Below are positions 13,201 through 14,245 of a stretch of DNA of 47,812 nt, in pieces. Positions within the stretch are counted from its first letter, which is position 1; every line of letters begins with the position of its first letter. The stretch comes from a virus. Taxonomy: Duplodnaviria; Heunggongvirae; Uroviricota; Caudoviricetes. Both the position numbers and the translations under genes were made by a program. The notes under the pieces were generated by a model, which did not search any database, was not told the origin of the DNA, and was given only the letters and a program-made list of their open reading frames with translations. The stretch is from positions 1-47,812 of the IMG/VR virus record IMGVR_UViG_649989947_000010, one strand, 5' to 3'.

Positions 13201-13437
13201 ATGCAGAACAATTCGAACAAATGTCGAACGCTATGGGTGCGGTTATATATTTATGCCGTCCTCTGTTTGATTGTGTCACTGGTTCTGTATGTTTGGCTTT
13301 TGCCAAATATGATCTCATCTAACAGCACAATACTTGTATTGTTGGGAGTCCTTCTCGCGCTCATTTACCCGGTTTTCGCAGTAGTCTTTTTTCGTGAAAA
13401 AACCAGGAAATTAATTAATGAAAAAAACGTTGATTAG
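13201..13437 (+). CDS. Small two-TM membrane protein (NfeD-like partner?)
   Basis: 78 aa with two hydrophobic helices; overlaps start of downstream SPFH gene. Confidence 0.45.
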   Translation: MQNNSNKCRTLWVRLYIYAVLCLIVSLVLYVWLLPNMISSNSTILVLLGVLLALIYPVFAVVFFREKTRKLINEKNVD

Positions 13438-14245
13438 TGCAGCGATTATTTTGGGTTCTTTATGTCTGACCGGATGCGATCGGGTAGAGCCAGGTAACGT
13501 AGGGATCAAAGTAAATAAGCTGGGGGATGATAAAGGTATCGGTGAAGTAGTTGGCGTTGGTCGCTACTGGACAGGCTTGAATACTGAAGTTTATATCTTC
13601 CCGACCTTTAAGCAAATGAAGACATACGATGAGCCGTTCAGCTTCCAGATGAGCGACGGAACAACCATTGGTTACCACATCGGCGTAGCCTACAAGGTTG
13701 ATCCAGCAAAAGTCACAACGGTATTTCAGACCTATCGCAAAGGTGTAGATGATATTACTGATACCGATCTACGCCAGAAGGTTGCAGATGCTCTGAACCG
13801 GTTAGCCAGCAAAATGACCACCGACAAATTTATCGATGGTGGCAAATCTGAATTGCTTGATGCAGCCCTTAAAGACATTCAGGAAGAAATGACGCCAATC
13901 GGCATTCAGGTGATGAGCCTCTCTTATGTAGGTAAGCCGGAATACCCGCCAACAGTTATTGACAGTATTAACGCCAAAGTCACGGCAAACCAGAAAACCC
14001 TGCAACGCGAGCAAGAGGTCAAACAACGTGAAGCAGAGGCTAACATGCTGCGCGCGGAAGCTGCCGGACAGGCTGATGCTATTCGCACAAAAGCCCAGGC
14101 CGAAGCTGATGCCATTCGTTTACGTGGTGAAGCTCTGCGCCAGAACCCCGGTGTTATGGAGTTGGAAGCGATCAACAAATGGAACGGCACGTTACCGCAG
14201 TATATGACCAGTAATACCGCTGTTCCGTTTGTTCCGGTGAAATAA
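13418..14245 (+). CDS. SPFH/band-7 family lipoprotein
   Basis: Lipobox LCLTGC; C-terminal A/E-rich repeats (EAEANMLRAEAAGQADAIRTKAQAEADAIRLRGEA) typical of HflK/C and flotillin-like proteins. Confidence 0.6.
   Translation: MKKTLISAAIILGSLCLTGCDRVEPGNVGIKVNKLGDDKGIGEVVGVGRYWTGLNTEVYIFPTFKQMKTYDEPFSFQMSDGTTIGYHIGVAYKVDPAKVTTVFQTYRKGVDDITDTDLRQKVADALNRLASKMTTDKFIDGGKSELLDAALKDIQEEMTPIGIQVMSLSYVGKPEYPPTVIDSINAKVTANQKTLQREQEVKQREAEANMLRAEAAGQADAIRTKAQAEADAIRLRGEALRQNPGVMELEAINKWNGTLPQYMTSNTAVPFVPVK

Follow-up and report, generated by a model that had tools for sequence, protein, structure and literature searches.

A ban-operon cassette of a P1-like phage-plasmid pairs a predicted periplasm-facing SPFH lipoprotein with a conserved two-TM protein

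A two-gene cassette of a P1-like phage-plasmid encodes a 275-aa member of the Band_7/SPFH family with a prohibitin/HflK-like fold and a 78-aa membrane protein that, by sequence comparison, is a real, conserved and co-inherited partner of the SPFH protein. The cassette is found in the window, that is, the whole 47,812-nucleotide stretch of viral DNA analysed here, which is 99% identical to RCS47; the prophage setting proposed in the first-pass annotation is thereby specified as a P1-like phage-plasmid. The pair is interpreted as a two-gene unit that would supply a lytic-phase periplasmic SPFH scaffold with a hairpin partner, a model to which we assign a probability of roughly 50%. Both ORFs are genuine, as indicated by their PHROG matches and their conservation over many loci, and their coordinates and 20-nt overlap are as first reported. 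The features of the locus are listed below in window coordinates.

11434–11461, no strand assigned: divalent C1 repressor operator (P1 Oban / Op72) at the ban operon promoter
12119–12194, plus strand: tRNA-Asn, in the same operon upstream of the cassette (ARAGORN; Rfam tRNA)
12197–12272, plus strand: tRNA-Thr, in the same operon upstream of the cassette (ARAGORN; Rfam tRNA)
12397–12816, minus strand: P1 plp homolog (ORF; RCS47 and P1 annotations)
12817–13008, minus strand: P1 upl homolog (ORF; RCS47 and P1 annotations)
13176–14263, plus strand: exchangeable cassette that replaces P1 tciA-tciB-tciC (BLASTN against P1)
13201–13437, plus strand: 78-aa two-TM hairpin protein, PHROG 1130, partner of the SPFH lipoprotein (ORF)
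13418–13437, plus strand: 20-nt gene overlap with an A7 run at 13421–13427 (sequence)
13418–14245, plus strand: 275-aa SPFH/Band-7 lipoprotein of the prohibitin/HflK-like class, PHROG 200
13418–13480, plus strand: signal peptide, lipobox L-T-G-C and Asp (Cys20 codon at 13475–13477 and Asp codon at 13478–13480)
13949–14197, plus strand: A/E-rich coiled-coil helix (aa 178–242), followed by the C-terminal motif K254-W-x-G-x-x-P260
14273–14348, plus strand: CAU-anticodon tRNA, starting 28 nt past the SPFH stop codon (ARAGORN, Rfam)
14634–15998, plus strand: ban, a DnaB-like replicative helicase gene downstream in the operon (ORF; RCS47 and P1 annotations)

The SPFH pair is an exact allelic replacement of P1 tciABC inside the ban operon. 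In the BLASTN alignment, window positions 12539–13175, on the upl side of the cassette, correspond to positions 4344–4979 of P1 locus L002, and window positions 14264–15000, downstream of the cassette, correspond to L002 positions 5696–6433. The P1 annotation places tciA, tciB and tciC between the two aligned flanks. Approximately half of the P1-like plasmids carry the SPFH cassette and approximately half carry tciABC (PMC9603915). P1 TciA belongs to the TerB family (PF05099, 2e-6) and TciB to DUF3927 (7e-31) in Pfam searches, and the pair from the window matches neither family. Together with the 35-aa TciC, these proteins of the alternative allele suggest that the slot holds envelope-related cargo.

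The cassette, the tRNA genes and ban are located on the same strand of an operon that had been described as repressor-controlled, and the operator bears this out. The C1 operator sequence ATTGCTCTAATAAATTT is matched at the ban promoter without a mismatch on one strand and with two mismatches on the opposite strand, forming a perfect P1 C1 operator with an inverted partner. Pban/Oban is annotated at the homologous position in P1, and the window contains 11 C1 operator-like sites, compared with 0.19 expected. A consensus scan across positions 11300–14700 identified no sigma-70 consensus promoter. A terminator-like hairpin is located between Pban and the cassette (11627–11646), and the other terminator-like matches of the same scan around the cassette are weak and lie inside genes. 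Given this hairpin and the lack of a sigma-70 site, the claim that the cassette is transcribed leans on the P1 ban operon, from which we take it to be transcribed on the basis of the P1 GenBank annotation and general knowledge of P1. The tRNA-Asn and tRNA-Thr genes score 74.5 and 73.4 bits, respectively, in Rfam, and the CAU tRNA is assigned to Met by ARAGORN and annotated as trnI (Ile2) in P1. The pair had been placed between tRNA genes, and tRNA-Thr indeed ends at 12272 and the CAU tRNA starts at 14273, but 930 bp holding the plp and upl homologs intervene. These two genes sit between tRNA-Thr and the cassette, outside the SPFH module, and neither product has a match in a Pfam search.

The 275-aa protein aligns with the Pfam Band_7 profile (PF01145) over residues 22–208 at 107.6 bits (cutoff 23.6; E=9.7e-31), and the match spans profile positions 2–176 of 176. 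PHROG 200 is matched at E=2e-113. The SPFH/Band-7 identity suspected in the first-pass annotation is thus borne out by the profile search, and the lipoprotein signal by the sequence itself. The N-terminus consists of MKKTLISAAIILGSLCLTGC followed by D, which comprises a signal peptide, the lipobox LTGC with Cys20 and Asp at position +2, and leaves a mature lipoprotein of 255 aa. The predicted lipobox takes the place of a TM helix as the N-terminal membrane anchor. Cys20 is invariant in a 10-sequence alignment, and Asp occupies position +2 in all 129 enterobacterial-cluster loci (129/129). In E. coli, Asp at +2 is a Lol-avoidance signal that retains lipoproteins in the inner membrane, a rule that applies to E. 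coli. Based on these signals, the lipoprotein probably resides in the inner membrane with its SPFH domain facing the periplasm. In distant SPFH homologs, position +2 is occupied by S, E, N or G, so localisation may vary among hosts.

The fold was modelled with AF2 as a monomer of moderate quality (pLDDT 75.6, pTM 0.50), using a shallow alignment of sequences with at least 67% identity; widening by profile search yielded mostly the same close relatives. DSSP assigns strands over residues 19–94, helices, a strand at residues 163–175 and two C-terminal helices (residues 178–242 and 245–253). The A/E-rich repeats initially described correspond to the SPFH coiled-coil helix of residues 178–242, and no repeat array is present. 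K254, W255, G257 and P260 of the motif that follows are invariant in phage homologs from Enterobacteria to Staphylococcus. In the model, helix 178–242 and the C-terminal motif putatively correspond to the helices through which SPFH cages oligomerise and to the cage cap. The pLDDT is low in the C-terminal 25 residues, which is compatible with a tail that might become ordered only in an oligomer. Foldseek relates the model to HflK, PHB1/2, erlin, stomatin, flotillin, QmcA and MVP with a probability of 1.00. The full-length matches are HflK (7vhq_E; 7e-13, the best), PHB2 (8rrh_B), erlin and stomatin, and profile matches in the PDB comprise prohibitins (8e-13, the closest), QmcA, HflC/K and erlins.

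The 78-aa protein contains two hydrophobic segments (approximately residues 13–35 and 43–64), consistent with the two-TM description given at the outset. In the predicted topology, both termini are cytoplasmic, and the segments are connected by a short periplasmic loop of about 8 residues (LLPNMISSNST). The periplasmic turn is conserved as P-x-x-(I/V)-S-S-x-(D/S)-T. The protein matches PHROG 1130 (E=6e-16), whose category is 'moron, auxiliary metabolic gene and host takeover', and no Pfam family above cutoff. Of 80 close loci, 74 have a two-TM ORF that directly adjoins or overlaps the SPFH start; among the remaining six, four still carry the small ORF and two are truncated by rearrangement. 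At greater distance, a small homologous two-TM ORF precedes the SPFH gene in most members of approximately 10 of 24 clusters. The same arrangement of a small TM ORF and an SPFH gene recurs in Klebsiella lambdoid, Erwinia N4-like, Pseudomonas, Caulobacter and crAss-like loci, and the SPFH partner of Staphylococcus Kayvirus has one TM segment. Some lineages, such as 4MG and phiEa21-4, lack the upstream partner. Partner and SPFH protein are fused into a single ORF in at least 19 of the best 150 representatives at 50% identity. In these fusions, the hairpin with its loop motif leads into a third hydrophobic segment that ends in the lipobox and then into the SPFH domain, a topology that places the SPFH domain in the periplasm. 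SPFH proteins that are 95–98% identical in their mature parts pair with small proteins of only 21–44% identity, and any specific contact must therefore depend on the short loop motif.

The overlap of the two genes implies a putative translational coupling. Among 74 loci of relatives scored for this junction, 55 join the stop of the small ORF to the SPFH start in an ATGA overlap, and 11 have the 20-nt overlap. The SPFH gene is read in the +1 frame with respect to the small ORF, and in one relative (P0001), loss of one A from the A7 run produces an in-frame fusion. Programmed frameshifting at A7 was rejected, given that the RNA fold is no better than that of shuffled sequences (z=0.11) and that most relatives have ATGA without an A-run. 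The most plausible origin of the P0001 fusion is accordingly a 1-nt deletion or an error in sequencing the homopolymer.

Of 50,697 sequenced phage genomes, 795 encode SPFH homologs; these phages belong to unrelated lineages and comprise virulent as well as temperate ones. Among complete E. coli genomes, 9% carry a homolog. Strictly virulent carriers include Kayvirus, Vequintavirinae, Ounavirinae, N4-like and jumbo phages. Two lambdoid prophage loci were inspected, and in both the SPFH gene follows cI on the same strand; in one of them, the Stx2d locus, it is flanked by cI and xis/int. The SPFH gene family is common and already annotated in databases, sometimes wrongly as 'serine protease', and the small ORF is usually missed. 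The literature search on the phage SPFH subfamily yielded genome-annotation mentions only, with no functional study of the two-protein unit found, and a P. aeruginosa SPFH survey mentions neither phage nor lipoproteins.

The fold, the anchor signals, the linkage of the two partners and the position of the cassette are documented by the present analysis. In the mechanism proposed on this basis, the overlapping genes would encode one functional unit. From established rules of localisation, we infer that the 275-aa protein would leave the cytoplasm, receive a lipid at Cys20 and stay anchored in the periplasmic leaflet of the inner membrane owing to Asp at +2. Rules of the same kind suggest an oligomeric cage, in which the SPFH protein would most likely oligomerise through the coiled-coil helix and the KWxGxxP tail into a ring or dome around a membrane patch; the dome is predicted from the likeness to HflK/C, prohibitin, erlin, stomatin and QmcA. 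The 78-aa hairpin would be the integral-membrane partner inside or beneath the dome, with both ends cytoplasmic, and would play a role similar to that of NfeD or of the SPFH protein's own TM segment in other SPFH systems. Established rules also bear on timing: as part of the ban operon, which C1 represses, the cassette would be expressed after derepression, during early lytic growth, and would be silent in the quiescent lysogen. That many strictly virulent phages carry homologs is in keeping with a lytic-phase role. As the most likely gain for the phage, the inner membrane of the infected cell may be conditioned or protected, for example against superinfecting DNA entry or pore-forming agents, a tentative speculation that we regard as somewhat doubtful. 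A bolder proposal, which we consider a long shot, is a widespread, phage-specific 'periplasmic nanocage' that would fence off part of the cytoplasmic membrane early in infection by virulent and temperate phages of many hosts. Such a cage might hide the membrane perturbation caused by infection from membrane-sensing abortive-infection systems or, alternatively, might enclose a host membrane protein such as FtsH, a DNA-entry channel or a pore-forming effector, and the fast-evolving small partner (21–44% identity) could supply target specificity.

The lytic-phase scaffold model was weighed against other readings of the pair, the first of which was its earlier likening to NfeD-SPFH pairs. The analogy holds for the linked two-TM partner and the fusions but not for the NfeD family itself. 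The NfeD profile (PF01957) has no match in the 78-aa protein even at E≤1, or in four of its homologs, whereas the positive control, E. coli YbbJ, is matched over residues 94–148 in its C-terminal OB domain (E=3.5e-12). Only 14 residues follow TM2, and the 78-aa protein is too short to fit an OB domain. A weak BLASTP similarity to the TM region of YbbJ (E=0.005, single comparison) extends only over hydrophobic segments and probably reflects composition. Adjoining, overlapping genes, a TM-hairpin partner and this similarity would all suit a canonical NfeD-SPFH operon, but the defining OB-fold domain is absent while the YbbJ control is positive, which refutes family membership and makes such an operon barely credible. 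A mimic of HflK/C that modulates or sequesters FtsH or another membrane client, and thereby stabilises phage proteins or biases development, agrees with HflK as the best fold match, with HflC/HflK among the sequence matches and with the likewise periplasmic SPFH domains of HflK/C. Moreover, the SPFH gene of an Stx2d prophage lies between cI and xis/int, an interval that we take to be the lambda early-left operon region, and the lambda early-left operon encodes the FtsH inhibitor CIII. However, the NCBIfam hflC and hflK models score only 24.7 and 23.3 bits against cutoffs of 134.4 and 159.4, respectively, and prohibitins are closer than HflK/C by sequence. There is one SPFH gene without a K/C heterodimer or a TM anchor, and homologs are found in haloarchaeal viruses, leaving the mimic quite unlikely.

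A superinfection-exclusion or anti-phage/anti-colicin module that blocks DNA entry or pores, comparable to T4 Imm/Sp, HK97 gp15 or P22 SieA, would suit two proteins predicted to act on the periplasmic side of the inner membrane, which incoming phage DNA has to cross. The cassette also shares its slot with the TerB-type tciABC, ter operons have been tied to phage inhibition in a published analysis (PMC9603915), and the PHROG category of the small protein includes moron and host takeover. Nonetheless, PADLOC (PADLOC-DB v2) returned 0 families at E≤0.1 for both proteins, which rejects a known anti-phage defence system, and no homology to known Sie proteins emerged from Pfam and PHROG searches. 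The operon is repressed in lysogens, making prophage-expressed exclusion less likely than a lytic-phase role, and the family is common in virulent Gram-positive phages and archaeal viruses, which points to a more general function; exclusion is therefore considered unlikely. Control of lysis timing by a holin- or antiholin-like small protein that is organised or restrained by the SPFH scaffold would be in line with the position of mbpV-mbpS between lysK and tgl in Kayvirus, where MbpV resembles holins according to the authors (PMC7150955), and with a crAss-like phage in which a peptidoglycan hydrolase is encoded two genes downstream of the SPFH pair. This reading is very unlikely, given that the match of the small protein to the PHROG holin phrog_565 is weak and not significant (E=0.047), that papers on N4 and CSP1 lysis inhibition do not mention the SPFH genes and that the cassette belongs to an early replication/tRNA operon under repressor control, where a TerB cassette can take its place. 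An Rz/Rz1-type two-component spanin was also considered and rejected: the inner-membrane protein has only a short loop and no large periplasmic coiled coil, and the 255-aa mature lipoprotein has an SPFH domain and Asp at +2, whereas an o-spanin is a small outer-membrane lipoprotein. Finally, Pasteurella multocida PM0222, a prophage-island HflK/C-like protein of 25–35 kDa that is found in OMVs, activates TLR1/2 and attenuates virulence when deleted (PMC9872710), sets a precedent for a lysogenic-conversion surface or OMV lipoprotein that alters host–pathogen interaction; a shared subfamily is putative. Asp at +2 predicts retention in the inner membrane, the operon is C1-repressed and the family is abundant in virulent phages, all of which render this role highly improbable.

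SPFH scaffolds are universal, and their bacterial functions are mostly obscure. The lytic-phase scaffold model draws attention to a unit of two proteins, the smaller of which usually goes unannotated, and to a predictable topology in which the SPFH protein is an inner-membrane lipoprotein that is predicted to face the periplasm. The cassette and tciABC constitute a clean natural allele swap in P1-like elements that permits isogenic comparison. If the module excludes competitors or counters membrane-based defences, it bears on phage therapy and on the ecology of phage-plasmids, among which P1-like elements spread ESBL genes. A 'periplasmic nanocage', if true, would represent a new class of counter-defence or takeover function, and a cassette without a phenotype would be an ordinary accessory gene.

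Among known systems, HflK/HflC (PDB 7vhq, 7wi3 and 9cz2) shares the full-length fold of the phage SPFH protein (Foldseek E=7e-13, approximately 280 aligned columns), with an SPFH domain, here predicted to be periplasmic, a long coiled-coil helix and a C-terminal tail. The identity is approximately 17–20%, the equivalog HMMs score far below cutoff, and the K/C pair with an N-terminal TM helix contrasts with a single phage gene and a predicted lipid anchor. Prohibitin PHB1/PHB2 and erlin1/2 cages (PDB 9urz, 8rrh and 9vvj) are the closest solved structures by profile (E=8e-13 to 1e-8), also match closely by fold and resemble the phage protein in size (approximately 270–300 aa) and domain order, but they are eukaryotic, organellar hetero-oligomers with a TM or hairpin anchor and without a small-partner gene. 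SPFH-NfeD operons (E. coli QmcA-YbbJ, PDB 8z5g; YqiK-YqiJ; Pyrococcus PH1511-PH1510) likewise couple an SPFH gene to a small multi-TM gene, whose product is presumed to reside within the SPFH assembly, as proposed for the phage pair, although their partner has an OB-fold domain and the phage partner does not. QmcA faces the cytoplasm, whereas the SPFH protein described here is phage-borne and predicted to be lipid-anchored and periplasmic. P1 tciA-tciB-tciC ('tellurite/colicin resistance/inhibition of cell division') occupies the same slot, from the upl upstream region to trnI, and similarly combines a soluble or peripheral protein with very small co-encoded proteins; it has no sequence or domain relation to the SPFH cassette, and the equivalence is positional only. 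The MbpV-MbpS pair of Kayvirus is known from annotation only (PMC7150955). MbpS is a homologous SPFH protein (approximately 26% identity, 98% coverage) that is likewise preceded by an abutting gene for a small membrane protein. It differs in that MbpV, unlike the two-TM partner of the phage-plasmid, combines a single TM segment with a long charged tail, MbpS lacks the canonical lipobox context, the host is Gram-positive and the pair adjoins lysis genes.

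The small ORF and the SPFH gene are both real genes, and they overlap by 20 nt.

13201-13437, plus strand: small ORF, 78 aa (ORF call)
13418-14245, plus strand: SPFH gene, 275 aa (ORF call)

They lie exactly where the first-pass annotation put them, with the lengths that it gave. The small protein contains two hydrophobic stretches (residues ~13-35 and ~43-64). Positive charge on both flanks of these stretches predicts a hairpin with N-in/C-in topology and a periplasmic turn of 8 residues. The small protein matches PHROG 1130 ('membrane protein'; 6e-16). The N-terminus of the SPFH protein, MKKTLISAAIILGSLCLTGC-D, consists of a signal peptide with the lipobox LTGC and an Asp residue at +2. 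This protein matches PHROG 200 ('lipoprotein'; 2e-113) and spans the entire Pfam Band_7/SPFH profile (E=9.7e-31), which confirms the SPFH identity proposed for the lipoprotein.

In a PDB profile search, the SPFH protein matches prohibitins (E=8e-13), QmcA (E=5e-9), HflC (E=1e-8), erlins (E=1e-8 to 1e-5) and HflK (E about 1e-6), with weaker matches to flotillin and stomatin. In an AF2 model (built on an alignment of 39 sequences; mean pLDDT of 75.6), an SPFH α/β domain leads into a 65-residue helix (residues 178-242), and the tail is poorly ordered. Over its whole chain, the model aligns in Foldseek with HflK (7e-13), PHB2, HflC, erlin, stomatin, flotillin, QmcA and MVP, all of which form rings or cages. 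The SPFH protein scores far under the cutoffs of the HflK and HflC equivalog models and is thus not an HflK/C ortholog. Two features do not vary among phage homologs from Enterobacteria to Staphylococcus: the lipobox Cys residue and a C-terminal K-W-x-G-x-x-P motif. Asp at +2 is found in 129 of 129 loci of the enterobacterial cluster. Asp at this position of an E. coli lipoprotein is an inner-membrane retention signal.

The small protein is a genuine partner of the SPFH protein, as indicated by synteny in close and distant loci, a conserved turn and single-ORF fusions, though it is not an NfeD protein. The pair had been said to recall NfeD-SPFH pairs, and the comparison holds as an analogy only. 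The NfeD profile (PF01957) does not match the small protein even at E<=1, whereas the control, E. coli YbbJ, is matched (3.5e-12) through an OB domain for which the 78-aa protein has no room; NfeD membership is therefore rejected. Among 80 close IMG/VR loci (SPFH genes at least 78% identical), 74 contain an upstream two-TM ORF that ends at the SPFH start. The remaining six comprise four loci whose ORF falls slightly below the hydrophobicity threshold and two truncated by rearrangement. The overlap is of the ATGA type in 55 close loci and of 20 nt in 11. When 300 phage loci were grouped into 24 clusters at 60% identity, about 10 clusters, including those of Pseudomonas, Caulobacter and crAss-like phages and uncultured lineages, showed a two-TM ORF upstream in most members. 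The Kayvirus version of the partner has one TM (mbpV-mbpS), and some lineages, such as 4MG and phiEa21-4, lack the partner upstream. The sole conserved sequence feature of the small proteins is the periplasmic turn, (L/V)-P-x-(M/L)-(I/V)-S-(S/M/A)-x-(D/S)-(T/S).

HMMER, run exhaustively over 1.84 billion representative proteins, recovered 222 clusters at E<=1e-30; at E<=1e-10 the number is 952. At least 19 of the best 150 clusters are single-ORF hairpin-SPFH fusions. A two-TM hairpin comes first in these, then a charged linker, then a third hydrophobic segment that closes with a lipobox, and last the SPFH domain; the loop motif was detected in 16. The fusions tie the hairpin and SPFH proteins together functionally and fix their topology, with the hairpin ends in the cytoplasm and the SPFH domain in the periplasm. 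A database protein, P0001 (347 aa, eight member sequences), joins the small ORF and the SPFH gene in frame through loss of one A from the A7 run at 13421-13427. This fusion fits the topology, with the signal peptide turned into a third TM segment and the lipobox kept. No stimulatory RNA structure was found at the A7 run in the gene overlap.

The two halves of the pair differ in conservation. Among the close loci, mature SPFH proteins that are 95-98% identical to that of the window cassette (small ORF plus SPFH gene) are paired with small partners only 21-44% identical, and their signal peptides are 33-50% identical. At least four small-protein types stand beside near-identical SPFH proteins. 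This pattern places a recombination breakpoint near the signal-peptide cleavage site and indicates either that the partner is under loose constraint or that it is diversifying. On E. coli chromosomes, megablast matches to 13201-14245 start at ~nt 271 of the query, just within the SPFH ORF.

Homologs of the SPFH protein were detected by tBLASTN in 795 of 50,697 phage records, many from strictly virulent phages, with hosts including Staphylococcus, Pseudomonas, Enterococcus, Erwinia, Klebsiella, Escherichia, Burkholderia, Halorubrum, Caulobacter and Bacillus. Of 5,426 complete E. coli genomes, 509 contain the gene according to megablast, with 201 places on plasmids and 384 on chromosomes. Both lambdoid prophage loci that were inspected have it downstream of cI and on the strand of that gene, and in a Stx2d-converting phage it sits between cI and xis/int. 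Records label it 'SPFH domain-containing protein', 'lipoprotein' or, wrongly in several phage records, 'serine protease' or 'putative serine protease'. The small ORF usually goes unannotated: it is missing from the RCS47 (FO818745) and Stx2d phage (LC567830) annotations and is not listed among the matches shown for RefSeq P1-like plasmids and PLSDB records.

The window derives from a P1-like phage-plasmid. Positions 12000-14700 are 99.2% identical to Escherichia phage RCS47; P1-like genomes cover 95% of 1-24000 at 98% identity and 72% of the rest.

11434-11461: divalent Oban operator, C1-operator consensus match
11627-11646, plus strand: strong terminator-like hairpin, 8-bp GC-rich stem then T7
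12119-12272, plus strand: tRNA-Asn and tRNA-Thr
~930 bp between tRNA-Thr and the small ORF, minus strand: homologs of P1 plp and upl
14273-14348, plus strand: CAU-anticodon tRNA (trnI in P1)

The plus-strand order is Oban/Pban, the dicF-like region, tRNA-Asn and tRNA-Thr, the plp/upl stretch, the small ORF, the SPFH gene, the CAU tRNA, ban and dbn. Oban controls the ban operon according to the P1 annotation, and the C1-operator consensus occurs 11 times in the window versus 0.19 expected, which supports the earlier description of a repressor-controlled operon. The placement between tRNA genes needs qualification: tRNAs lie on both sides, but the plp/upl stretch intervenes after tRNA-Thr. The hairpin lies ~170 nt downstream of Oban/Pban, in the dicF-like region of the P1 annotation, and transcription of the tRNAs, cassette and ban has either to pass this hairpin or to begin elsewhere.

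Several features of the neighboring sequence were also observed. The stretch 12273-13200 contains four degenerate direct repeats (core CTTACCGTTGTGATGAATGCGCAGG; 12349, 12545, 12778 and 13039), further repeat families and an inverted repeat with 23-nt arms (12693-12715/12770-12792). A sub-threshold Rfam match to the sRNA STnc100 (13047-13167, plus strand; 37.8 bits, gathering score 47; E about 2e-6) terminates with a T-run right at the cassette junction. Pfam finds no matches in the plp/upl ORFs. The stretch may encode a structured plus-strand RNA, in which case these ORFs may not encode proteins. In its 3' part (12365-12539), the plp homolog differs from P1 and interrupts the homology; P1 plp overlaps trnT, whereas the window ORF (139 aa) stops short of tRNA-Thr. 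The RCS47 labels 'Plp' and 'Upl' denote minus-strand ORFs and not the hairpin-SPFH pair. A further gap in P1 homology (22918-25396) holds two head-to-tail IS10-type (IS4-family) transposase ORFs.

23025-24233: IS10-type transposase ORF, 402 aa
24208-25383: IS10-type transposase ORF, 391 aa

Apart from about 25 residues at the start of the 402-aa protein, the two are identical; the arrangement is a tandem IS insertion or else an artefact of assembly.

The analysis establishes the fold, the anchor signals, the linkage to the partner and the position in a C1-controlled operon. By established rules, the SPFH protein would be lipidated and retained in the inner membrane, and would assemble on its periplasmic side into a ring or cage covering a patch of membrane with the hairpin protein in it. 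Expression would follow derepression, during early lytic growth, which fits the abundance in virulent phages and the position in lambdoid loci. The benefit to the phage is speculative. The leading candidate (probability about 0.35) is that the pair conditions or protects the inner membrane of the infected cell, which would include keeping out secondary invaders or pore formers; exclusion was among the possible roles named in the first-pass annotation. Sequestration of FtsH or a client ranks next and is unlikely, a role in lysis timing is somewhat less likely still, and a lysogenic-conversion lipoprotein like Pasteurella PM0222 (PMC9872710) is the most doubtful. Defence-system HMMs do not match the pair. 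The literature search found no paper testing any member of the SPFH-lipoprotein subfamily; the sole discussion found, of Kayvirus MbpS, is speculative (PMC7150955).

The SPFH gene is common, is already in databases and will not surprise a specialist. A modest novelty is the conserved, sometimes fused, two-protein module of a 'headless' hairpin and a lipid-anchored periplasmic SPFH protein. Also new is its relation to P1. BLASTN homology to P1 stops at 13175, 25 nt ahead of the small ORF start, and restarts at 14264, 9 nt ahead of the tRNA. The intervening 1,088 bp stand in place of 716 bp of P1 encoding tciA (TerB family), tciB (DUF3927) and tciC. PLSDB has 436 plasmid records with the P1-type ban gene; counted over all records, 195 carry the SPFH cassette (189 near full length) and 289 carry tciABC (191 near full length). 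A comparison of P1-like phage-plasmids describes tciABC as one of eight hypervariable regions, 'lost' from nearly half of the elements, with the replacement content unstated (PMC9603915). The SPFH cassette is what occupies this slot and, in P1-like phage-plasmids, is an alternative allele to tciABC.
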